Assembly: GCA_038065455.1 (NCBI GenBank)
Contig: JBBTQX010000004.1
Span: forward strand, 71,157 to 130,941
Length of the DNA stretch: 59,785 nt
Direction of reading: 5' to 3'
Source of the DNA: Patescibacteria group bacterium
GTDB taxonomy: Bacteria; Patescibacteriota; Minisyncoccia; UBA6257; GWB1-50-10
Positions 9,237 through 59,429 of this stretch are shown one piece after another. The notes below the pieces were generated by a model, which ran no database searches, was not told the DNA's origin, and saw only the letters and a program-made list of their open reading frames with translations. Both the position numbers and the translations under genes were made by a program. Position 1 is the stretch's first letter. Every line of letters starts with the position of its first letter.

Positions 9237-9264
9237 AGTATAGGAGATAGTTTTTAAATGTCAA
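9237..9264 (-). promoter_or_regulatory. sigma70-type promoter (TTGACA-16 nt-TATACT)
   Basis: The minus strand reads TTGACAtttaaaaactatctccTATACT, directly downstream of hairpin 9265-9331 and upstream of the acidic ORF and PBP gene. Confidence 0.5.
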
Positions 9265-9331
9265 CCAGGTAGTAGAAGTTCGGCTTCCGCCTTAGGCGGC
9301 GTTGCGAAGCGGCCGAACTTTCACTACCTGG
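9265..9331. repeat. short inverted-repeat hairpin sharing the CCAGGTAGTAGAA / TTCACTACCTGG clamp of the leader-element family (copy A)
   Basis: 20-bp arms CCAGGTAGTAGAAGTTCGGC / GCCGAACTTTCACTACCTGG carry the same A-C plus G-T irregularity as copies B and C. It lies 7 nt (9332-9338) beyond the ruvC stop codon (9339-9341). Confidence 0.75.
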
Positions 9332-9338
9332 TCAACCC

Positions 9339-37038: not shown

Positions 37039-37043
37039 ATTTA

Positions 37044-37187
37044 CCAGGTAGTGAAAATGCGATTGCAAATCGTGATTAAACCAACGATTTGTCCTTTAAT
37101 TCTAATGACCTTTTATATAATTTCATATTCTGTGTTAAGTGATAGTTCATAATTTAAATTTAACCTAATCGCATTTCTACTACCCGG
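37044..37187 (-). repeat. inverted-repeat leader element, copy C (fills the infC-rpmI intercistronic gap)
   Basis: On the coding strand, arms CCGGGTAGTAGAAATGCGATT ... AATCGCATTTTCACTACCTGG enclose a 102-nt AT-rich interior. It begins 1 nt after the infC stop and ends 5 nt before the rpmI ATG. Confidence 0.85.
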
Positions 37188-37691
37188 TTAATTTCTTCTG
37201 GCGATCTGGGCCACGAATCCCCGGCCGCCCTGTCTCGGGCTCATCGTTATCTCATGGGGAACGGAAATCATAGTAAGGAATTCCCGCATTTTCTGCAAGG
37301 CCCATTCCTTGTTTCCTTTTTCCCGGCCCCGGAGAAAGATGCCGATTTCCACCTTGTGACCCTCTTTTAAAAACTCGTCCGCCTGCTTCGCTCGGATTTG
37401 CAGATCGTTCAGCGCCGCCCGAGGACTGATGCGCACCTGCTTCAGTTCCTTCTGTTTCTGGGCCTGCTTCTGTTTTCTCTCCTCTTTGCCCTGGTAGTAG
37501 CGGAATTTGTCGAAGCTCATTATTCGCGCGACGGGCGGCTTGGCCATAGGGGCGATTTCAATGAGGTCGAGAGTCTTCTTTTGGGCCAGAGCGAGCGCGT
37601 CTTCTTTGCTCATCACGCCGAGGTTCTCGCCGGCTTCGTCTATTACCCGGAGTTCCTTGGCGATTATTTGATTGTTGATTCTGTTTTGGAT
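37188..37691 (-). CDS. infC: translation initiation factor IF-3 (probable non-AUG start)
   Basis: The ORF-track version (142 aa from GTG 37616) lacks the conserved N-terminus. The in-frame upstream sequence reads IQNRINNQIIAKELRVIDEAGENLGV, as IF-3 N-termini do. The candidate start is ATC at 37691, or ATA/ATC further in. The exact start is uncertain. Confidence 0.8.
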   Translation of the reverse strand: MQNRINNQIIAKELRVIDEAGENLGVMSKEDALALAQKKTLDLIEIAPMAKPPVARIMSFDKFRYYQGKEERKQKQAQKQKELKQVRISPRAALNDLQIRAKQADEFLKEGHKVEIGIFLRGREKGNKEWALQKMREFLTMISVPHEITMSPRQGGRGFVAQIARRN

Positions 37692-37730
37692 ATTCGAATG
37701 ATAGCAGGGAAGAAAGATAAATTCAATTAT

Positions 37731-37817
37731 AAAGAAACCAGGGTATGCCGAAAAAGTGTGCGCTCCGGGGCGCTAGCCCAAGTCTTACCCACTTTTCCAG
37801 CACACCCTGGTTTCTTT
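37731..37817 (-). promoter_or_regulatory. 87-nt three-tier hairpin in the infC upstream region
   Basis: A 14-bp outer stem AAAGAAACCAGGGT/ACCCTGGTTTCTTT encloses an inner stem GAAAAGTG/CACTTTTTC and a GC-rich apex. It could be an L20-type leader or a terminator. Confidence 0.4.
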
Positions 37818-37855
37818 ACATGTATTCATCTAGAGAGAAGATTATTAATTTTTTG

Positions 37856-38534: not shown

Positions 38535-38778
38535 AAAATCCTCCTACTCATGAATTGGTTGATTTTAAAGCGTTTGGAAAATAAACTGCTTTTTAATTTA
38601 CCACTAAAGTCGAAAAAAGACAATTCTTCTCCCTCATCCCTCGACTATGCTCGGGATTCATCCGAAGCCACGGACTTTCGCTTTATCATCCCCCGGATGC
38701 GCGAAAGTTCCGTTCAATTCCCGTTCAACTACTAAAAACACAAATACCCGGCCTTTTATGGTTGGGTGTTTGTGTTTG

Positions 38779-39086
38779 TGGAGACGGCGGGAATTGAACC
38801 CGCGTACGGAAAGATTCGGCAAGCGTTTCTACAAGTTTAGTTCCGGTTGCCCGGAGCGGTTTTGCCTTCCTGTTTTAACGGAAGATACGGAAAGCGGATC
38901 TCTCCCGCGAACTCGCGATATGACACCGGAAGTTCCCTAGCGAGTGTCGGGGCCGATGCGGCATTACGCGAAAGCGAATGCCGGAGCTACCGTTTTATTG
39001 GCAGTTATCTTGGAAGCCGTTTTAGTGAGCGGCAGGCTCAGCTTGCTGCGTTTGCTTCATTCATCCCGTCGAAGCCGATCATCCCC
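38779..39086 (-). ncRNA. ssrA: tmRNA (SsrA)
   Basis: On the minus strand the 5' end reads GGGGATGATCGGCTTCGACGGG and the 3' end GCGGGTTCAATTCCCGCCGTCTCCA. The acceptor stem has G3-U. The tag reading frame at 39002-38964 gives ANKTVAPAFAFA*. It is adjacent to smpB. Confidence 0.85.
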
Positions 39087-45538: not shown

Positions 45539-46534
45539 TCAAAGGAGTCCGATTCTCTTTTTCACCTCCAAAAGTTTTTTTGAGGCCGCTACACCGGCTT
45601 TCTTGTTTCCTGCCAAAGTTATCTTACCTATAAGGCTCGTCTTTTTCGTTAACTCTCCCTTTCTTTTCTGGAAAGGCGCGAGAGTCTTTATGGCCGCTTC
45701 CGCCAAATCGCGCTTGAATTGGCCGTATCCTTTTCCGCGATACCTCTTTTCGATTGAGGCGCCGGTTTCATTCGTGAAAGCGGAATAAAGAAGGACGAGA
45801 TTTCCGATGCCTTCTTTGCCTTCCACATCGGCACTCACCTCCTTCCCTGAATCCGTAACCGCACCCATGATTTTTTTGCGGATGATGTCCGGTGAATCAT
45901 CGAGGAAAAGACAGCCGGCTGGCCGGGATTTGGACATCTTCTTTTTAGGATCGTCCAAACTCATCACTCTCGGATTGTCTGTGAGAATAGGCATAGGTTC
46001 GATGAAGGTCTTCCCGAATTTGTGGTTGAATTTCCGAACGAGCGTGCGGGCGAATTCCAGATGCTGAAGCTGGTCATCGCCCACCGGAACGAAATTAGCG
46101 CCATAAAGGATAATGTCCGCGGCCATCAGGACGGGATAGTCGAAAAGGCCGAGATTCACGTTTTCCGGAGAATGTTCCGATTTATCTTTAAATTGTGTCA
46201 TTCTTTGGAGTTCTCCTATTGAGGTCAAGGTATTCAAAATCCAACCCAATTCAGTGTGGGCCGGTATGGCGGACTGGACGAAGATGACGGATTTTTTCGG
46301 ATCCAGGCCGGCGGCAATATAATCGACGAGCAATTCCATTATCTGTTTCAGCTTTTCTTTAGGATTGTTCCGCCCACTGGCGGATTCCGTAAGGGAGTGC
46401 AAATCCGCCACGAAGAAGAAGCATTGGTACTTGCCGGAGTTCTGGAGCGCCACGAAGTTCTGGAGGGCTCCCAGGTAATTCCCGATATGCAGTTTTCCCG
46501 TCGGCTGAATGCCGGACACAAGGATTGGTTTCAT
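45539..46534 (-). CDS. trpS: tryptophan--tRNA ligase
   Basis: MKPILVSGIQPTGKLHIGNYLG (HIGH motif) and KMSKS. The ORF-track start at 46570 reads through the repeat arm. Confidence 0.93.
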   Translation of the reverse strand: MKPILVSGIQPTGKLHIGNYLGALQNFVALQNSGKYQCFFFVADLHSLTESASGRNNPKEKLKQIMELLVDYIAAGLDPKKSVIFVQSAIPAHTELGWILNTLTSIGELQRMTQFKDKSEHSPENVNLGLFDYPVLMAADIILYGANFVPVGDDQLQHLEFARTLVRKFNHKFGKTFIEPMPILTDNPRVMSLDDPKKKMSKSRPAGCLFLDDSPDIIRKKIMGAVTDSGKEVSADVEGKEGIGNLVLLYSAFTNETGASIEKRYRGKGYGQFKRDLAEAAIKTLAPFQKRKGELTKKTSLIGKITLAGNKKAGVAASKKLLEVKKRIGLL

Positions 46535-46655
46535 CCCGTTAGAAATAGTGCGCATGCGCATAAGAAGCAAAACATGCGTTATTTTTACTGACCTTTATTG
46601 CAGATTGATTATTCATGGTTATTTATATTGATTTGCGCACGCGATTTCTAACGGG
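46535..46655 (-). repeat. inverted-repeat leader element, copy D (abuts the trpS ATG)
   Basis: Coding strand: CCCGTTAGAAATCGCGTGCGCA ... TGCGCACTATTTCTAACGGG followed directly by ATG. Length 121 nt. Confidence 0.85.
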
Positions 46656-46678
46656 ATTCATATGGATTTAGTATAAAT

Positions 46679-46710
46679 GAAAAACCCACCTTTTTAAAAG
46701 GTGGGTTTTT
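46679..46710 (-). terminator. bidirectional rho-independent terminator after the RNase J gene
   Basis: AAAAACCCACC-tttttaaaa-GGTGGGTTTTT. Confidence 0.7.
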
Positions 46711-46713
46711 CTC

Positions 46714-48528
46714 TTAGACCTCAATAATAACCGGCAGGATCATCGGCCTCCGTTTCGTCTTCGTGAAGAGAAATTGGCCGACTTGGTCGCGGATGAGCGC
46801 TTTGATGTAGTCGCCGTCCACCGCTTGTTGGTCGTGAGGGAGTCGGCCGATGATGCCGCGCACTTTGCGCCGAATTTCGTCCAATAGACTTTGATTCTCT
46901 TTGAGATAAATGAAGCCGCGGGAGATGATGTCGGGATTCTTGAGAACCCGGCCCGTTTTTCTGTCCATGGTCGTGATGACCACAAACATCCCTTCTTGAG
47001 CGAGCGCCAAGCGGTCGCGCAGAACCACCTCGCCCACGTCGCCCACTCCCAAGCCGTCCACCATCACATAGGAAGAATTAACTTTTTCCTGGGCTACGGT
47101 CACCTTGTCTTCCGAAAAAAGCGCCATATCGCCATTGTCCAGAATTACCACCCTTTCCCGCGGGATACCGACTTCCTGGGCGATTTTCACGAGATTTTTT
47201 CTCATAAAATAATAGCCATGGACCGGAAAGACGAATTTGGGTTTCACGAGTTCCATCACGAGCTTCAAATCTTCGTGTTGGGCGTGGCCGCTCGCGTGGA
47301 TGTCCAGAAGTTTCGTGTTGTAAACTTCGTCCACTTGGCGGGCGACATTGTCCTGGAGGAATTGAATGCTCCGTTCGTTCCCCGGAATAACGGAAGAAGA
47401 GAAGACGACGGTGTCCGTCGGCTTCAGGCGCACGATGCGATGCTCGCCGTTCACGATGCGCATCAGTCCCGCATTCGCTTCGCCCTGCGCGCCGGTCGTG
47501 AGAATCAAAACTTTGTCGTCTTTATGCTTGTTTACTTCTTCGAGCGGAATTATCGAGCCGGCTTTGGGCTTGAAATATCCGAGCTCTTGGGCAATGGCCA
47601 TATTGTCTTTCATTGAACGGCCGTTCAAAGCCACTTTACGCCCGTACTTTTCGGCGATTCTCACGATTTCAAAAACGCGGGTCATAAGCGAGGCGAAAGT
47701 CGCGAGAATAATGCGATGCTTGGCACTTGCGATAAGCTTGTCCAAATTATCTTCCACCATCATTTCCGAAAAGGAGAAGCCGGGCCGGAGCGAATTGGTG
47801 CAATCCAAAAAGATGCTGTGAATGTTGCGTTTGCCGAGATTTTCGTAAACTTCGGTGTCGAGCGGCTTGCCGTTCTTGTCGATGCGCAGGCGGAAATCGC
47901 CCAAGTGGGCCATATTGCCGGCCGGAGTCTTCAAGAGAAAACCCAAAGCGTCCGGAATGGTATGATCCACATTGAAAAATTCGGCTTCGAAATGTTCGCT
48001 CAAAACGCGCTTATCGCCGTGCTTCACGACATCAAAGCGCAGTTTGGGGGCGTTTATGAATTCCAAATGTCTTTTTTCCACCACTGCTTTAGTGAAATCG
48101 GCGGTATAGATAAGCGGATTCGCGATTTTGCCGACAACATAGTGGATAGCCGCGATATGGTCGTAGTGGCCGTGGGTGAGCAATATCGCTTTGATTTTGT
48201 CCTTATTCTTTTCCAAATACTCGATATTCGGAATGATGTAATCCACGCCCGGCGTGGTTTCTTCCGGGAATTGAATGCCGACGTCCACGATGATTATCTC
48301 GTCCTTATATTCGAAGAAGGAGCAATTGCGGCCCACTTCCTCGAGTCCGCCCAGCGGCACGAAGCGCACCGAGTCGTGGTCTTTAATGGCGGCTTCGGCC
48401 GCGCTCATGCCCGGGCGTACTATCTGGATTTGGGGCATGGTTGTTCGGCTGGATGATTTGCGCCGAATCCCGCTCGATCTTGAGTTGTCTCTATAGGAAG
48501 ATTTTCCCGTTCTTGTCTGTTTTAACAT
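46714..48528 (-). CDS. rnj: ribonuclease J
   Basis: 604 aa, MBL plus beta-CASP, with THGHYDH and an R/S-rich N-terminal extension of about 30 aa. Confidence 0.92.
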   Translation of the reverse strand: MLKQTRTGKSSYRDNSRSSGIRRKSSSRTTMPQIQIVRPGMSAAEAAIKDHDSVRFVPLGGLEEVGRNCSFFEYKDEIIIVDVGIQFPEETTPGVDYIIPNIEYLEKNKDKIKAILLTHGHYDHIAAIHYVVGKIANPLIYTADFTKAVVEKRHLEFINAPKLRFDVVKHGDKRVLSEHFEAEFFNVDHTIPDALGFLLKTPAGNMAHLGDFRLRIDKNGKPLDTEVYENLGKRNIHSIFLDCTNSLRPGFSFSEMMVEDNLDKLIASAKHRIILATFASLMTRVFEIVRIAEKYGRKVALNGRSMKDNMAIAQELGYFKPKAGSIIPLEEVNKHKDDKVLILTTGAQGEANAGLMRIVNGEHRIVRLKPTDTVVFSSSVIPGNERSIQFLQDNVARQVDEVYNTKLLDIHASGHAQHEDLKLVMELVKPKFVFPVHGYYFMRKNLVKIAQEVGIPRERVVILDNGDMALFSEDKVTVAQEKVNSSYVMVDGLGVGDVGEVVLRDRLALAQEGMFVVITTMDRKTGRVLKNPDIISRGFIYLKENQSLLDEIRRKVRGIIGRLPHDQQAVDGDYIKALIRDQVGQFLFTKTKRRPMILPVIIEV

Positions 48529-53486: not shown

Positions 53487-53638
53487 AAAAAGCCAGAAGC
53501 GTTTTATAAGAAAACCGTTTCGCAGGCCGAACGGGCACGGTTCGAGCGAAGCGAGAGAGTGAGGCCGAGAGCGAGCGCAATCCGCCGGCTGGGGCGGATT
53601 GATAGCGTGTTTTCGAGTGAAATACTTCTGGCTTTTTT
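53487..53638 (+). terminator. long composite hairpin, a terminator-like structured element
   Basis: AAAAAGCCAGAAG ... CTTCTGGCTTTTTT encloses about 125 nt of GC-rich sequence with several internal hairpins (AATCCGCC-ggct-GGGGCGGATT). Confidence 0.45.
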
Positions 53639-56150: not shown

Positions 56151-57674
56151 TTATCTGGCAAATTCCACTGCCTTCACTTCCCGAATAACCGTCACTTTTA
56201 TCTCACCGGGATATTGGACGTCGGCTTGAATCTTACCTGCGATTTTTTTAGCCAGCTCCAGTGCGCCGAAATCGTCGATTTTCTCCGGCACGACGAAGAC
56301 CCGAACCTCCCGGCCGGCTGAAACGGCGTATGATTGTTTCACGCCCTCGAAGGTGTTCACGGCTTTTTCTATTTCCTGCAGACGTTTGATATATTTCTCG
56401 ATGGTATCGCGCCGGGCGCCGGGCCGGGCGGCAGAAATGGCGTCCGCGGCCGTCACGATGTAGGCCTCGGGCGTCGCATACGGATAATCGTCATGATGGG
56501 ATTCCATTGCGTGAATGACCGCTTCCGGCATATTGTACTTTTTGAGGAGTTTGCGGCCGATCTCGACGTGCGTACCTTCCACCTCGTGGTCGATGGCCTT
56601 GCCAATATCGTGGAGCAAGGCGCCTTTTTTCGTCGTTTCCACATTCAAATGAAGTTCGCTTGTGATCATTCCGGCGATATGAGTCATCTCAATGGAGTGG
56701 ATGAGCACATTCTGGCCATAGCTCGTGCGGAAGTTCAGCCGGCCCAGGAGATAAATAAGCTCTTTCGGCAAATCCATTATTCCGACTTCATAGGCCGCTT
56801 CCTCGCCGATTTTATGGATGCGGTTTTCGAGTTCTTGGCGCGCCTTCTCCACTTCCTCTTCTATTTTCGCTGGCTGGATGCGGCCATCTTTCAATAGTTT
56901 TTCAAGCGCCATTTTCGCGAGTTCGCGGCGCATCGGATCAAAAGATGAAATAGTAACGCTCTCGGGTGTTTCATCCATGATAAGTTCCACCCCGGTCAGC
57001 CGCTCGAAAGCGCGGATATTCCGTCCTTCTCGGCCGATAATTTTCCCTTTCAGTTCCTCGTTCGGAATGCTCACGACGCTCGTCGTTACATCCGCGATGG
57101 AGTTGCGCGCGTAGCGCTGAATTGCGCCAATGATTATCTCTTCGCCTTTTTTCTCGATTTCTTCATGGCGGTCACGTTCCAATTTGGAGATTGCATTCGC
57201 AATTTCCTGGCGATGGCTGGTTTCAAATTCGTCGAAGATGGCTTTCTTCGCTTCTTCGCGCGAAAGGCCGGCCACTCGTTCTATTTCGCGAATCGCTTTT
57301 TCGTGGAGTTCCTTCACCTCCTCCTCTTTTTTCTTGAACTCCTCGTCTTTTTCGGCGATGCGCCGATTCTGTTTTTCCAGTTCCTTTACGCTCGAGTCCA
57401 GTGAATCCTCCTTTTTTATCAAACGCTCTTCCAATCGCCGCAATTCCTGCTTGCGTTCCCTCTCTTCTTTTTGGGCCTCGGAGATAATGGAAGCCGCCTG
57501 CGTTTTCGCTTCAACGACTATTTCTTTCGACTGGGTTCCGGCCGCTTCAAGTTCTTTCTCCGCCTTCCGCTCCAATGAGGAGTGAAGTTGCTTGGCCATT
57601 CCCAGACGCAGGAAGTAGCCGATTACGATACCTAGAACCGCCAAACCGCCCGCTAATAGGGGGTCTTGAATCAT
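56151..57674 (-). CDS. rny: ribonuclease Y
   Basis: 507 aa with an N-terminal TM segment, coiled coil, KH domain and HD domain (LLHDIGKAIDHE). Confidence 0.93.
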   Translation of the reverse strand: MIQDPLLAGGLAVLGIVIGYFLRLGMAKQLHSSLERKAEKELEAAGTQSKEIVVEAKTQAASIISEAQKEERERKQELRRLEERLIKKEDSLDSSVKELEKQNRRIAEKDEEFKKKEEEVKELHEKAIREIERVAGLSREEAKKAIFDEFETSHRQEIANAISKLERDRHEEIEKKGEEIIIGAIQRYARNSIADVTTSVVSIPNEELKGKIIGREGRNIRAFERLTGVELIMDETPESVTISSFDPMRRELAKMALEKLLKDGRIQPAKIEEEVEKARQELENRIHKIGEEAAYEVGIMDLPKELIYLLGRLNFRTSYGQNVLIHSIEMTHIAGMITSELHLNVETTKKGALLHDIGKAIDHEVEGTHVEIGRKLLKKYNMPEAVIHAMESHHDDYPYATPEAYIVTAADAISAARPGARRDTIEKYIKRLQEIEKAVNTFEGVKQSYAVSAGREVRVFVVPEKIDDFGALELAKKIAGKIQADVQYPGEIKVTVIREVKAVEFAR

Positions 57675-57753
57675 ATTGTTTTATATTGGTTAAATTGTTT
57701 TTCATCGACGTTTTACCGTTTTTATTATATCGCTTACAATTAGCTTAATCAAT

Positions 57754-57872
57754 CCCGTTAGAGACGTAAAACTTTAGAATTATGAATTATTCCAATTACA
57801 ATCAAGTCGAATCAGCGAAATTAATCGAGGTGTCACGGATGCGCTTTTTAAGCGCATCCGGTCTCTAACGGG
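57754..57872 (+). repeat. inverted-repeat leader element, copy E (abuts the gpmI ATG)
   Basis: CCCGTTAGAGAC ... GTCTCTAACGGG followed directly by ATG at 57873. Length 119 nt. A local perfect hairpin GGATGCGCT-tttta-AGCGCATCC lies at 57836-57859. Confidence 0.85.
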
Positions 57873-59429
57873 ATGACCAAGAAACCGGTAGTTTTGGCGA
57901 TTTTGGACGGGTGGGGGATCGGTAAGCTGGATGAATCGAATCCGATCTACCGCGCTGAACCTCCAACCATGAATTTCATCCGCGCCAACTTTCCGGCCGG
58001 AGCTCTTCAATCATCCGGCATTGCTATCGGCCTTCCGTGGGAGGAGGAGGGAAACAGCGAAGTCGGCCACCTTACAATCGGGGCGGGCAAAGTCCTTTAT
58101 CAGCATTTTCCCAGAATATCGCTCGCAATCAAGAACGGCAGTTTTTTTAAAAACAGCGTTCTTCTCACAGCTATGGAGCACGCGAAAAAAAATAATTCCA
58201 CTCTCCATTTGATGGGGCTTCTGACCGATGCCAATGTCCATGCATCTCTCGAGCATTTGGAAGCGCTTATAAAAATGGCGCGGGAGGAAAAGTGCCCGAA
58301 TATCTCCCTTCATCTTTTTTCGGATGGCCGTGACACCGACCCAAGTTCTGTTTTGAAGATTTTAGCCGGGCTTTCGGATGACCTTAAATTCGATGCCCGC
58401 TCTATTCTCGCGACCCTGACCGGAAGGTATTATGCGATGGACAGGGACAAGCATTGGGACCGGACGGAAAAAACCTATCAAACTTTGACGGGAGCGAATC
58501 CGGTAAAAATCGGTTTGGAAGAAGCGGTTAAAAAAGCCTATAGTCTCAATTTAAATGATGAATATATTGAGCCGTCGATAGTCGCTAATGAACCGCGCTT
58601 CATTGGGGAAAACGATGCCGTTATTTGTTTCAATTTTCGCGAGGATCGGATGCGCCAACTTTCCGAAACTTTCATCGATCCGAATTTCGGCGTTTTTCCT
58701 GTGAAGAAATTTACCAATCTTTTTTTCGCGACTTTCACGAACTATGATGCCCGATTCGCCGTTCCGATCGCTTTTCCGGAAGAAGCGGCGGAAAATCCGC
58801 TAGGCAAGGTGCTTTCGGATAACGGCAAGCGCCAGTTGCGGATTGCCGAGACCGAAAAATATGCTCACGTCACTTATTTTTTTAATGGTCTCAAGGAAAA
58901 ACCTTTTCCGGATGAATTCCGAATTCTCGTGCCATCGGAGAATGCCGTCCATTACGAACAGTATCCGCAAATGATGGCCGGGGCCGTGACTGATCGGGTG
59001 ATCGCAGCGCTCGCAGAAGGGACCTACGATTTTATTCTGGTGAACTATGCCAATCCCGATATGGTGGCGCACACGGGCAATTATGAGGCGACGCTGAAGG
59101 CGATTTCGATCGTCGATCAGGGAATCAAAAGAATAATGGAAAGTGTTTTGGACCAGGACGGCGTGCTTCTCATAACTTCCGATCACGGGAACGCCGAGGT
59201 GCTGCTCGATCTGAAGACGGGCGAGCCGGAAACGAAGCACAATCCGAACCCAGTTCCGTTTTATCTGGTGGGGAAGCGTTTCAGAAAACGTTCTCCCGTG
59301 GATTCGCTCGCGCCCTTGCCGGTCATCGGAATTTTGTCCGATATCGCTCCGACGATTTTGGAATTGATGAAAATACCCCAGCCGCTCGAAATGACCGGGC
59401 AGAGCCTACTCCCGCAATTATTGAGTTAA
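57873..59429 (+). CDS. gpmI: 2,3-bisphosphoglycerate-independent phosphoglycerate mutase
   Basis: 518 aa with GNSEVGHLTIGAG and TSDHGN motifs. Confidence 0.93.
   Translation: MTKKPVVLAILDGWGIGKLDESNPIYRAEPPTMNFIRANFPAGALQSSGIAIGLPWEEEGNSEVGHLTIGAGKVLYQHFPRISLAIKNGSFFKNSVLLTAMEHAKKNNSTLHLMGLLTDANVHASLEHLEALIKMAREEKCPNISLHLFSDGRDTDPSSVLKILAGLSDDLKFDARSILATLTGRYYAMDRDKHWDRTEKTYQTLTGANPVKIGLEEAVKKAYSLNLNDEYIEPSIVANEPRFIGENDAVICFNFREDRMRQLSETFIDPNFGVFPVKKFTNLFFATFTNYDARFAVPIAFPEEAAENPLGKVLSDNGKRQLRIAETEKYAHVTYFFNGLKEKPFPDEFRILVPSENAVHYEQYPQMMAGAVTDRVIAALAEGTYDFILVNYANPDMVAHTGNYEATLKAISIVDQGIKRIMESVLDQDGVLLITSDHGNAEVLLDLKTGEPETKHNPNPVPFYLVGKRFRKRSPVDSLAPLPVIGILSDIAPTILELMKIPQPLEMTGQSLLPQLLS

Follow-up and report, generated by a model that had tools for sequence, protein, structure and literature searches.

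Copy D, the hairpin-forming sequence at the 5′ end of trpS in a Patescibacteria contig, is very probably a MITE-like palindromic mobile element seated on the trpS start codon and a member of a large family in CPR/Patescibacteria, a judgement that takes in the route by which the gene would still be expressed. It lies on the minus strand of the window, by which we mean the whole stretch of DNA analysed (59,785 nt of contig JBBTQX010000004.1, assembly GCA_038065455.1). The features of this copy and of a second one, copy E, are the following.

46679..46711, minus strand: intrinsic terminator of the upstream RNase J gene, overlapping the -35 region and lying outside the element.
46670..46675, minus strand: -10 hexamer TATACT of the predicted trpS promoter, 8 nt before the upstream ATG and kept 7-8 nt before the ATG in all orthologues examined.
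46657..46661, minus strand: upstream copy of the duplicated target ATGAA, from the comparison with locus L129.
46535..46656, minus strand: body of copy D, 122 nt, T + CCCGTTAGA...TCTAACGGG, missing from the orthologous trpS loci L128-L132.
46644..46657, minus strand: 5′ arm of the outer stem, ATCCCGTTAGAAAT, its first 11 nt being the family-invariant terminus.
46634..46643, minus strand: 5′ strand of the inner stem, CGCGTGCGCA, predicted by RNAfold and in agreement with the CGCG subfamily consensus.
46623..46661, minus strand: uORF1 from the upstream ATG, MNPVRNRVRKSI and stop, crossing the 5′ arm and the inner stem.
46539..46616, minus strand: uORF2, 25 codons in the frame of uORF1, with its ATG 6 nt past the uORF1 stop and its end at the 3′-arm TAA, 4 nt before the trpS ATG.
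46548..46560, minus strand: 3′ strand of the inner stem with the 12-nt palindrome TGCGCATGCGCA, then unpaired CTAT, predicted by RNAfold.
46533..46546, minus strand: 3′ arm of the outer stem, ATTTCTAACGGGAT, with TAA at 46541..46539, 4 nt before the ATG, and taking in the A and T of that ATG.
46530..46534, minus strand: downstream copy of ATGAA, made up of the working trpS start ATG (46534..46532) and the first 2 nt of codon 2.
57752..57874, plus strand: copy E on the gpmI start codon (ATG 57873), with arms at 57752-57765 and 57861-57874.

The hairpin before trpS (ORF 45539-46534, ATG 46534..46532 on the minus strand) is real. As the initial annotation had it, the coding (minus) strand reads CCCGTTAGAAATCGCGTGCGCA ... 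TGCGCATGCGCACTATTTCTAACGGG-ATG, no SD sequence lies between the stem and the ATG, and the AUG is predicted to be occluded. The pairing of the outer stem, described as 12 perfect base pairs, is indeed perfect and its true length is 14 bp (arms 46657..46644 and 46546..46533), the inverted repeat 46533-46546 / 46644-46657 enclosing a 97-nt loop. That no base separates the stem from the ATG also holds; the 3′ arm, said to end just before the ATG, takes in the A and U of the trpS AUG in the RNAfold prediction. The tandem TGCGCA is present as well and can be redefined as a 12-nt perfect palindrome, TGCGCATGCGCA (46549-46560), belonging to an inner stem in which this block is predicted to pair with CGCGTGCGCA (46634-46643). 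The RNA fold of copy D is predicted at -40 kcal/mol (z = -5.0), and none of 200 shuffles was equally stable.

The trpS orthologues found in the same gene order (RNase J - trpS - ileS), with 76-85% amino acid identity, read TATACT-N7-8-ATGAAACC and carry no element; over its full length the ORF at 45539-46534 is 85% identical to P0002. At L129 and L130 the flank is that of the window up to CATATGA and then goes on as AACCAATC, which is an exact empty site: L129 reads CATATGAAACC and the window reads CATATGAA[T..CGGG]ATGAAACC. The trpS sites of L128 and L131/132 are likewise empty. These empty sites in syntenic orthologues indicate that copy D arrived as an exact insertion of 127 nt, which duplicated 5 bp (ATGAA) of the gene start. 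By the same comparison the upstream ATGAA is the original trpS start codon, and it is probably the 5′ end of the trpS transcript.

The hairpin had been annotated initially as a control leader specific to trpS, in which the stem masks the AUG and either regulated melting or RNase III cleavage yields a translatable leaderless mRNA. The AUG does lie inside the stem, the predicted structure (14 + 10 bp with an internal loop) would in principle be long enough for RNase III, and the host appears to use leaderless mRNAs. Yet the comparison of trpS in sister genomes, set beforehand as the test that could refute this reading, found the element absent from close relatives, the nearest syntenic orthologues showing the exact empty site, and present on the start codons of dozens of unrelated genes in at least 120 genome stretches. 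The Rfam searches, made over the whole window at the gathering threshold and over 46480-46720 at E up to 10, returned only tRNAs, tmRNA and terminator-like matches, the last being all that was obtained at copy D, which bears out the absence of a T-box noted at the outset. A T-box, a riboswitch and a Trp leader-peptide attenuator were rejected, there being no Rfam family match, no W in the uORF peptides and no element in the orthologues. Gene-specific control of trpS is thus an improbable explanation and, as far as the sequences tell, the element is selfish DNA and neither a tryptophan-responsive nor a gene-specific regulator.

The termini ATCCCGTTAGA...TCTAACGGGATG were sought in 596 Gb of sequence as a 23-nt terminal pattern with a 70-100 nt gap, for which we estimate a chance expectation of about 0.5; the count of at least 120 genome stretches is a lower bound. 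Among the matches listed, the hosts are mostly CPR/Patescibacteria, with a few Planctomycetota and Omnitrophota, and these matches put the element in considerably more than a hundred bacterial species of groundwater and sediment, CPR for the most part. Phage carriage received little support, the pattern occurring in only one viral contig. The terminal inverted repeats of the family read (A)TCCCGTTAGA...TCTAACGGG(AT), where the invariance of the 11-nt terminus follows from the design of the search, and in most listed copies the arms are perfectly complementary over at least 14 bp. Copies are 93-125 nt in size, are non-coding and contain no transposase ORF. Among the matches listed, nearly every copy is seated at a genuine start codon; ATGR is duplicated upstream, and the interiors have diverged. 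In 117 of the 136 listed matches an ORF of 50 codons or more begins at the ATG that follows the 3′ arm, and the N-termini encoded downstream, assigned by sequence to pheT, clpP, ssb, rpmJ and others, come from unrelated genes. In 1 Mb of loci, ATG or CAT flanks 143 of 149 relaxed-arm pairs. No description of such an element was found in the full-text literature on CPR leaderless, MITE or palindromic DNA or on start-codon target duplication; this is apparently an undescribed MITE-like element that colonises start codons. The best reading of its sequence is that it is built to keep the host gene translatable.

Family-wide, the duplicated block is ATGRA, although the length of the duplication is not perfectly uniform. 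Among the matches listed, ATG stands directly upstream, at -4..-2, in 99/117 copies and is missing in 18/117, E among them; the fifth base is A in 106/117, and the fourth base is the same in both duplicate copies in 86/92. Tandem copies occur (L056, L017, L097, L078), as does a nested one (L136), and gpmI has been hit independently in the E/L136 lineage and in L153/154. A presence/absence difference is also seen between the window and L135, whose gpmI genes are 92% identical and whose 90-nt upstream flanks are identical. As to copies per genome, the 60-kb window has two, and several loci have two per 8 kb. No autonomous element or transposase with the same termini was found in 1 Mb of loci, a sample chosen for short copies, and in that sample, biased as it is to short copies, paired or solo termini at 150-3500 nt were at chance level. 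Apparent long terminus pairs turned out to be degenerate or tandem copies. Around the window copies, 20 neighbouring ORFs were scanned and contained no transposase or recombinase.

The orientation of the copies is strongly biased (42 to 3 and 27 to 4), which is not expected of a symmetric cut-and-paste transposon. Such a bias to the target strand would fit an IS200/IS605- or REPIN-type single-strand element that is moved by an HUH tyrosine transposase and inserts 3′ of ATGRA on one strand. The downstream ATGRA would then be the right end of the element, not a staggered-cut duplication, and the transposase would read folded ends. Consistent with this are the fixed short target, the subterminal hairpin that many copies, E included, carry 13 nt in from the end nearest the gene, and arms that co-vary as if structure, not sequence, were recognised past the first 11 nt. 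On the other hand, the long conserved terminal inverted repeats are not, to our knowledge, a feature of IS200/IS605 elements, and no TnpA or RAYT gene was seen beside the copies in a non-systematic look. An element-encoded target, with the R of ATGR tied to subfamily, was tried and rejected (not significant, Fisher p = 0.15); the fourth base thus matches in 86/92 copies yet is unlinked to subfamily, a combination that a true target duplication fits better. We therefore hold an HUH-type origin to be unlikely.

Do the arms bear the mark of selection on RNA structure? The compensatory differences between D and E were correctly described (AAT/ATT in D, GAC/GTC in E), and of 119 copies among the matches listed, 112-115 have paired bases at arm positions 12-14, with at least four pair types, compared with 72-80 when partners are shuffled. 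The co-variation itself therefore stands, but its use as evidence for RNA-structure selection does not: in the arms of the listed copies there are as many G.T as A.C mismatches (11 of each), and transposon arms also co-vary for DNA-level reasons, so that on this sequence evidence the co-variation is not a good argument for such selection.

The arms might also act in the DNA, as paired operators for a dimeric regulator or as the ends of an invertible promoter segment. Identical 11-bp half-sites do surround an AT-rich stretch of about 100 bp adjoining gene starts, in whose interior -10-like hexamers are common. These hexamers have no positional or strand preference, however (86 of the listed copies sense, 95 antisense, evenly spread), and the promoter is outside the repeats. 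Empty sites, target duplication and tandem and nested copies point to insertion, the host genes are unrelated housekeeping genes, and the orientation is biased (42 to 3), not mixed as an inverting switch predicts. An inverton was rejected on the outside promoter, the lack of a positioned interior -10, this orientation and the lack of a recombinase among the neighbours scanned. A DNA-level device of either kind is hardly credible.

How could a gene be translated with its start codon held in a hairpin? The only good promoter predicted for trpS (-35 TTTAAA, -10 TATACT at 46670-46675) is upstream of the 5′ arm and therefore the stem can form in the transcript, as had been supposed. The loci L128 to L132 share a TATACT placed 7-8 nt ahead of the ATG and lack an SD; because the -10 box is this close, trpS in the lineage is probably leaderless, and many genes of the window are of the same type, with the -10 close to the ATG and no SD. 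Among the matches listed, a -10-like hexamer stands 4-9 nt before the upstream ATG in 49/91 copies, against 16/91 in a shifted control, and an SD-like sequence precedes this ATG in just 6/91. An internal promoter that could launch a new leaderless transcript at the downstream ATG was rejected: the suitably spaced hexamer, TAYYTC (in D, TATTTC), is without the final T. The earlier proposal that translation needs the stem opened or removed may reasonably be kept. In leaderless translation, a hairpin from +5 would be expected to hinder initiation at a 5′ AUG, which counts against a route that begins at the old start.

We propose that the element is tolerated because its ends would hand ribosomes on. 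Transcription would still start from the old site, giving an mRNA that consists of 5′-AUGA and then the whole hairpin, in which the only frame open through the 5′ arm would be that of the old AUG (MNPVR...). Ribosomes initiating there would unwind the stem that masks the new AUG, and the 3′-arm stop, 4 nt upstream of the new AUG (UAACGGGAUG) or overlapping it (AUGA), would favour termination-reinitiation. In copy D the relay would run from uORF1 to uORF2 to trpS.

Several properties of the family are in line with such a hand-over. The conserved 3′ arm places a stop codon 4 nt before the regenerated ATG, or overlapping it, in two of the three frames. The frame of the upstream ATG is open across the entire element in 35/116 copies among the matches listed, whereas shuffled interiors give 12.4 ± 3.4 (maximum 25 in 500), making bridging upstream ORFs about three times commoner in the listed copies than chance. 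In 26 of these bridging frames the terminating codon is the arm TAA and in 9 it is the TGA within ATGA. Among listed copies of the in-frame class none is open (0/25), and the frame is open in 32/91 listed copies with an intact upstream ATG against 3/25 without. In SD-using phyla, arms of the form GACCT(C)/(G)AGGTC place GGAGG/GAGG 9 nt before the ATG, and the upstream ATG keeps its own SD; an SD in the 3′ arm is confined to these CCT-type arms, CPR-type arms having none. In D and in E, a single stop interrupts a bridging frame of 43-45 codons that is open elsewhere. Nevertheless, premature stops in this frame affect about 70% of the copies among the matches listed, D and E included. In the copies with premature stops the three length frames are equally common (28/28/25), which together with the frequency of such stops means that 3′-arm reinitiation cannot be the universal route. 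For trpS, translation by uORF-driven unmasking and reinitiation is a serious candidate to which we give somewhat less than even confidence.

Nuclease processing of the hairpin would be another route. A cut just 5′ of the downstream AUG needs no upstream AUG and would consequently also serve E and the 18/117 copies without one, and the reported retention of rnc in CPR genomes (PMC12641178) speaks in its favour. Nonetheless, processing leaves unexplained the excess of bridging uORFs, the stops abutting the ATG and the SD in the copies of SD-using phyla, and the parity of G.T and A.C mismatches gives no sign of selection on a sense RNA helix. RNase III normally cuts within a helix and not at its base, and after its cut some 10-14 nt of SD-less leader would still precede the AUG, which would not be 5′-terminal. 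It is rather unlikely that trpS is translated in this way. A translational hop has also been weighed, in which initiation occurs at the upstream AUG, the hairpin blocks the way and the ribosome with its initiator tRNA slides to the downstream AUG. The duplication does create identical take-off and landing codons, and a stable hairpin starts one nucleotide past the former. But the upstream AUG is missing in E and in 18/117 copies, and it has been retained no better (85%, about 95% per base) than the neighbouring duplicated base (93%), which suggests no special selection on the ATG; the excess of bridging uORFs argues for read-through, not jumping. Both as an explanation of the element and as the route to TrpS, a hop is very improbable.

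Taken with the ribosome hand-over proposed here, the family might be a kind of selfish DNA, undescribed so far, that is specialised in start codons, targeting ATGRA where genes begin, for the most part leaderless genes, over a whole bacterial radiation and beyond it, rebuilding the start by duplication and carrying the hand-over with it, a reading that we advance tentatively. In it, one frame is open from the old AUG through the 5′ arm, the two remaining exit frames have their stops right at the new AUG, and an SD is added where the hosts need one. In a stronger form, the MNPVR... frame is possibly the remnant of a transposase gene that borrowed the host promoter and start codon; alternatively, targeting is possibly to the open promoter complex or the transcription start of leaderless genes.

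Copy E folds at a predicted -50 kcal/mol (z = -6.4) and contains a subterminal hairpin at 57836-57860. Its left flank is ATCA, not ATGA, and comparison with L139-L141 suggests that the duplication was of 2 bp or absent, or else that 4 nt were lost later. There is no strain-level polymorphism at this site in the seven contigs with identical gpmI, all of which carry the identical element. With loops of no more than 250 nt, the window contains 32 perfect inverted repeats of 10 bp or longer, compared with 10.5 in shuffles; the only ones to attain 14 bp are D, E and 37730-37818. Copies A-C, which had been grouped with D and E, form a separate family, for their termini differ (ACCAGGTAGTAGAA) and no ATG adjoins them; this A-C hairpin family was not found in the fetched loci.

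The element matters first for annotation, because gene callers extend ORFs into it. TrpS from the working ATG has 331 aa, whereas the database copy is a 340-aa protein starting MRMRTISNGM, a gene call that begins inside the element; hundreds of CPR genes probably have false N-termini or spurious small ORFs. It is also a natural experiment in initiation: trpS, gpmI and, judging by N-termini, pheT, clpP, ssb and ribosomal protein genes tolerate an AUG-swallowing hairpin predicted at -30 to -50 kcal/mol. Explaining this tolerance would show how CPR ribosomes locate start codons in hosts that seem reliant on leaderless mRNAs. It is unusual for a transposable element to be specific for start codons and to carry a portable stop/start (and SD) module, and this one could serve as a compact translational coupler. 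The 11-nt termini common to CPR, Planctomycetota and Omnitrophota of the same habitats point to horizontal spread, for which the element may be a marker, and its presence/absence polymorphisms offer strain markers in groundwater populations.

Among known systems, the element has the traits of a MITE: shared terminal inverted repeats, a short target duplication with an empty site, small size, several copies and no transposase ORF. Bacterial MITEs co-transcribed with neighbouring genes include the Correia elements of Neisseria (CREE), ERIC/IRU, RUP and BOX. Like CREE, ERIC, RUP and BOX, the element measures about 100-150 bp, has terminal inverted repeats, a short target duplication and no transposase ORF, is found in many gene-adjoining copies, would be transcribed into a long hairpin and shows insertion/absence polymorphism in relatives. 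Unlike CREE-type MITEs, it has unrelated termini and targets ATGRA at start codons, where theirs is TA in intergenic DNA; it regenerates the start codon and carries stops, and in some hosts an SD, placed for the downstream gene; it is strongly oriented, lives in CPR, Planctomycetota and Omnitrophota and has no known parent IS. A Correia element as such was rejected, the termini being ATCCCGTTAGA with a duplication of ATGRA and not the 26-bp Correia TIR with TA.

REPINs, which are RAYT-mobilised REP doublets, and derivatives of IS200/IS605 resemble it in the hairpin of about 100 nt made of two inverted halves, the compensatory differences and the small subterminal palindromes, and strand-specific insertion is possibly common to both. 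Tested against IS200/IS605, the element has the fixed target, the orientation bias and the 3′ subterminal hairpin but also long TIRs and what looks like a true duplication. REPs lie outside genes, usually on their 3′ side, with a GTAG-type motif and no target duplication, whereas the element has a 4-5 bp duplication, an 11-nt invariant terminus and its residence on start codons; a REP or REPIN identity was rejected on the start-codon position, the lack of a GTAG terminus and the lack of a RAYT gene in a non-exhaustive look. Rickettsia palindromic elements (RPE) are similar in being palindromic selfish DNA of about 100-150 bp that survives in essential genes through function-compatible insertion. 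They are, however, in frame and translated in the host protein, while the present element stays outside the protein and its in-frame class is never open (0/25).

The gene 60 gap of T4 and the byp elements of Magnusiomyces mitochondria share with it a short hairpin-forming insert that the ribosome encounters between two identical codons. Copy D has such matched AUGs with a hairpin; E and 18/117 copies among the matches listed do not, and these copies, together with bridging uORFs that suggest read-through and reinitiation, set the family apart. Finally, termination-reinitiation coupling between host genes (AUGA, UAAnnnnAUG) is closely paralleled by the UAA 4 nt before the AUG, or the overlapping UGA, and by an SD or AUG held in a stem that an upstream ribosome would open. 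What distinguishes the element from such coupling is that the arrangement is carried by mobile DNA and is intact in only about 30% of its copies.

The start codon of trpS is free of this hairpin in the orthologous loci compared. The trpS orthologues found in the databases (P0002, 85% identical; P0006 and P0005, both 76%) all lie in an RNase J-trpS-ileS neighbourhood, and the DNA in front of trpS in five fetched genome stretches (L128 to L132) can be set beside that of the window, which carries the hairpin called copy D on the minus strand:

L129/L130, trpS intergenic DNA: GGCGGCTTTTTCATTTATACTAAATCCATATGAAACCAATC
L128, trpS intergenic DNA: TATACTGATACTTATGAAACC
L131/L132, trpS intergenic DNA: TATACTAACCTATATGAAACC
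Window, DNA upstream of trpS: ...TTTTTCATTTATACTAAATCCATATGAA-TCCCG...CGGG-ATGAA-ACCAATC

Since the orthologous spacers do without the element, copy D is, by this comparison, a clean 127-nt insertion at the trpS start codon, made up of 122 nt and a second ATGAA. The initial annotation had read the hairpin as a processing or occlusion leader of trpS and had itself named absence from close relatives as the finding that would speak against it; the element is absent from L128-L132, and the reading as a regulatory leader of trpS is not supported. The gene behind the element is a normal TrpS of 331 aa, read from the ATG at 46534. The database call (P0001, window 45539-46570) has 340 aa (MRMRTISNGM...) and starts inside the element because the gene caller ran into it. 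Several trpS orthologues are listed at 340-367 aa, and over-extended N-termini of this kind are probably frequent at genes that carry the element. Between RNase J and trpS, one relative has an ORF of 150-154 aa (L131 1984-2448, L132 1984-2436), mostly hypervariable GCG/GTT-rich 6-nt repeats (TGCGGTTGCGGGTGCG...), that differs between two samples of one aquifer.

On the minus strand the locus reads terminator-ATTTATACTAAATCCAT-ATGA-ATCCCGTTAGAAAT-CGCGTGCGCA-(loop)-TGCGCATGCGCAC-TA-TTTCTAACGGGAT-GAAACCAATC. The outer inverted repeat is perfect, as first described, and measures 14 bp rather than 12 (46644-46657 against 46533-46546); it reaches into the trpS ATG (46534..46532), whose A and T it includes. 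The RNA is predicted to fold into this 14-bp stem, a 4-nt bulge and an inner 10-bp stem, with an energy of -40 kcal/mol (z = -5.0 against dinucleotide shuffles). The worry that a stem covers the trpS AUG where no Shine-Dalgarno (SD) sequence is available is real. Rfam searches at D, at the gathering threshold and at permissive E-values, gave no family, the sole match being the RNase J terminator just upstream. The second member of the family in the window shares the outer 11 nt and the relation to the ATG:

57752-57874, plus strand: copy E, upstream of gpmI

Its predicted energy is -50 kcal/mol (z = -6.4), and its left flank is ATCA where D has ATGA. The interior of D (AAT-CGCGTGCGCA / TGCGCATGCGCAC-TAT) places it in the commonest subfamily, whose sides read ATCCCGTTAGA-RRY-CGCGRWCGC and GAYCGCGWCC-T-RYY-TCTAACGGGAT; E belongs to another, with a local hairpin of 7-11 bp lying 3-4 nt before the 3′ arm.

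D is a member of a mobile hairpin family that colonises start codons and is widespread in bacteria of the Candidate Phyla Radiation (CPR), a more general object than a single trpS leader. A scan for the exact termini ATCCCGTTAGA-N70-100-TCTAACGGGATG, with one genome per species, matched at least 120 genome stretches, where by our own arithmetic about 0.5 would be expected by chance in 596 Gb. Among the matches listed, nearly all are CPR/Patescibacteria MAGs (Paceibacterota, Saccharibacteria, Nomura-, Kaiser- and Moranbacteria, and others) and a few come from Sedimentisphaerales/Planctomycetes and Omnitrophota; only one viral contig carries the terminal pattern. In 117 of the 136 matches listed, the ATG after the element begins an ORF of 50 codons or more, and the N-termini belong to unrelated genes, PheT, ClpP, SSB, L36, L35 and a GlyRS-like protein being recognised by reading the sequences. 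When the arms were relaxed and the flanks left unconstrained in about 1 Mb of fetched DNA, 143 of 149 pairs were still bordered by ATG or CAT. Copies from different genomes can hardly be aligned in their interiors (only 14 pairs reach E < 1e-4), and two copies within one genome can reach 87-97% identity (L062, L095).

The insertion site is itself a start codon. An ATG lies directly 5′ of the element, at -4..-2, in 99 of 117 copies and is absent in 18; it is followed by A in 83 and by G in 24, this base equals the one after the downstream ATG in 86 of 92, and the fifth base of the target is A in 106/117. The commonest layout, ATGRA-T-CCCG...CGGG-ATGRA, accounts for 59 copies, with 24 more in which the following T matches by chance; minor classes have the ATG one base closer or farther. 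From these layouts the duplicated block is 4-5 bp long, TGRA or ATGRA according to where the element ends are drawn. The R of ATGR is not linked to subfamily (p = 0.15), which favours a genuine target duplication. Tandem copies, another indication that the element moves, have the middle ATGA in common (L056, L017, L097 and L078).

Comparison of 80 metagenomic gpmI loci, which also speaks for mobility, gives the same start codon in several states. L136 (77% aa identity) has an element orthologous to E, recognised by its interior, in which a further, nested element takes the place of E's subterminal hairpin (1290-1500). In L153/L154 (58%) the gpmI ATG bears an element of another subfamily, and ATGAA is duplicated. 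L135 (92%) has no element and a different 19-nt leader after the TACAAT box; its 90-nt upstream flank is 100% identical to the window (57660-57880) up to that box, which suggests a recombination breakpoint at the gpmI promoter. E is an atypical copy: relatives at its site (L139-L141) read AATCA-ATGA, and either its upstream ATGA was lost again or no more than AT was duplicated.

A -10-like hexamer stands 4-9 nt before the upstream ATG in 49/91 copies, against 16/91 in a stretch shifted by 30 nt; SD-like tetramers are found there in 6/91, equal to the control. Many first genes of the window likewise lack an SD and have a TATAAT-like box 5-8 nt ahead of the ATG, and its internal operon genes carry AGGAG:

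16706, 17690, 21792, 26936, 33131, 39546, 51519 and 57674: gene starts with a TATAAT-like box
46670-46675: -10 box of D, 8 nt before the upstream ATG
57735-57740: -10 box of E (TACAAT), 7 nt before ATCA

The organism thus appears to use leaderless mRNAs extensively. As the window and all orthologous trpS versions examined have TATACT 7-8 nt before the ATG and no SD, we infer that the trpS mRNA of this clade has no leader or almost none. Transcripts would then start at or beside the upstream copy of the start codon and include the whole hairpin.

How is a gene behind such a hairpin translated? In the 5′ arm only the frame of the upstream ATG is open (ATG AAT CCC GTT AGA, MNPVR), the other two meeting TGA and TAG, and in the 3′ arm a frame exits through a TAA 4 nt before the ATG (TAACGGGATG), through the TGA of ATGA, or in frame into the gene. 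The upstream-ATG frame is open across the whole element in 35/116 copies, where shuffled interiors give 12.4 +/- 3.4 (maximum 25 in 500), and interiors are stop-free in that frame in 37 copies against 13-23 in the other five. Open copies exit by TAA (26/35) or TGA (9/35), and 0/25 of the in-frame class are open; the skew of the length classes (54/37/25) comes wholly from open copies. Openness also tracks an intact upstream ATG (32/91 with it, 3/25 without). In Planctomycetota and Omnitrophota the arms are GACCT(C)...(G)AGGTC, their GGAGG or GAGG lies 9 nt before the ATG, stem-paired to a CCUC mimic, and the upstream ATG keeps the gene's own SD (L057, L068, L074, L079, L121); CPR-type arms contain no SD. 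Bridging frames, arm stops and SD-bearing arms together suggest a hand-over, in which a ribosome that initiates at the old start codon would unwind the hairpin and then be passed to the regenerated start codon.

This cannot serve every copy. The frame of D has one premature TAA (MNPVRNRVRKSI*), 6 nt after which an in-frame ATG opens 25 codons ending at the arm TAA 4 nt before trpS; that of E has ATC for ATG and one TAG, then 33 open codons to a TGA overlapping the gpmI ATG. Because the bridging frame is closed in about 70% of copies, with no frame preference (28/28/25), because 18/117 lack the upstream ATG and because a hairpin at +5 ought to get in the way of leaderless initiation, hand-over must be joined by at least one further route. 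This could be nuclease processing, as the initial annotation proposed; alternatively, the stem may breathe, or CPR ribosomes may have a mechanism of their own.

The compensatory arm differences noticed earlier between D and E are part of a family-wide pattern. At arm positions 12, 13 and 14 the two sides form a pair (A-T, G-C, C-G or T-A) in 115, 112 and 115 of the 119 distinct copies, against 80, 72 and 78 (maximum 87) with shuffled partners, and pairings of mismatched copies end at 11 bp in one third of trials, real stems mostly reaching 14-19 bp. Among the non-Watson-Crick cells, G.T and A.C account for 11 cases each, the mismatch harmful to a sense RNA not being depleted. Since transposon ends also co-vary, one protein or templating step seeing both, we treat the co-variation as a sign that the palindrome matters to the element and not as evidence for a selected mRNA structure.

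The element is directional relative to the gene: the asymmetric 3′ module is found beside the arm nearer the gene in 42 copies and beside the farther arm in 3, and the local hairpin is gene-proximal in 27 and distal in 4. A simple symmetric cut-and-paste model does not explain this bias. A parent of DDE type would fit the 4-5 bp duplication and the terminal inverted repeats; a HUH-type mechanism acting on single strands would fit the fixed target, the bias in orientation and the subterminal hairpin. In the fetched DNA, which is biased to short copies, and in collection scans spanning at most 600 nt, we saw neither a long element nor a solo end, and no transposase nearby.

Copies A-C, previously grouped with D and E, have other termini (ACCAGGTAGTAGAA) and form a different family, ACC(A/G)GGTAGTAGAA...TTTCACTACCTGGT, with the same A.C mismatch and G.U in all three:

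9262-9334, plus strand: copy A, between the ruvC stop and a small acidic ORF, with TCAA on both flanks
19722-19850, minus strand: copy B, in front of rpsT at 9 nt from its ATG; a TATAAT box precedes the 5′ arm by 5 nt
37043-37190, minus strand: copy C, filling the spacer between infC and rpmI, with TAA on both flanks

This second family has the look of a further MITE that uses another target; no copy turned up among 132 fetched loci. A motif at about 53683 (ACCGGGTAGTAGAAC) resembles its terminus. Hairpins at 37730-37818, upstream of infC, and 53487-53637 have 29-nt arms (90% and 79% complementary) and no Rfam family apart from generic hairpin models. Within 26667-26912, the 3′ end of tRNA-Arg(CCG) (26715-26742) recurs directly at 26885-26912 (93%) and inverted at 26789-26801, as if an integrated element had left attachment-site scars there. 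The neighbouring ORF, of 595 aa, contains repeats of 153-156 nt and has no match in Pfam. A second integration scar may lie at 38712-38799, where a 12-nt inverted repeat (GTTCAATTCCCG) involves the tmRNA gene (38776-39086, minus strand) at its 3′ end.

We file the start-codon element as a MITE-like palindromic mobile element. Our full-text literature search, whose coverage is incomplete so that an earlier description is possible, found no description of it. It most resembles the bacterial MITEs that are co-transcribed and form hairpins (Correia/CREE, ERIC), the REPINs, and the Rickettsia palindromic elements, selfish palindromes that are tolerated inside essential genes; to our knowledge, no member of these groups has start codons as its target or brings along a module for stop/start hand-over.
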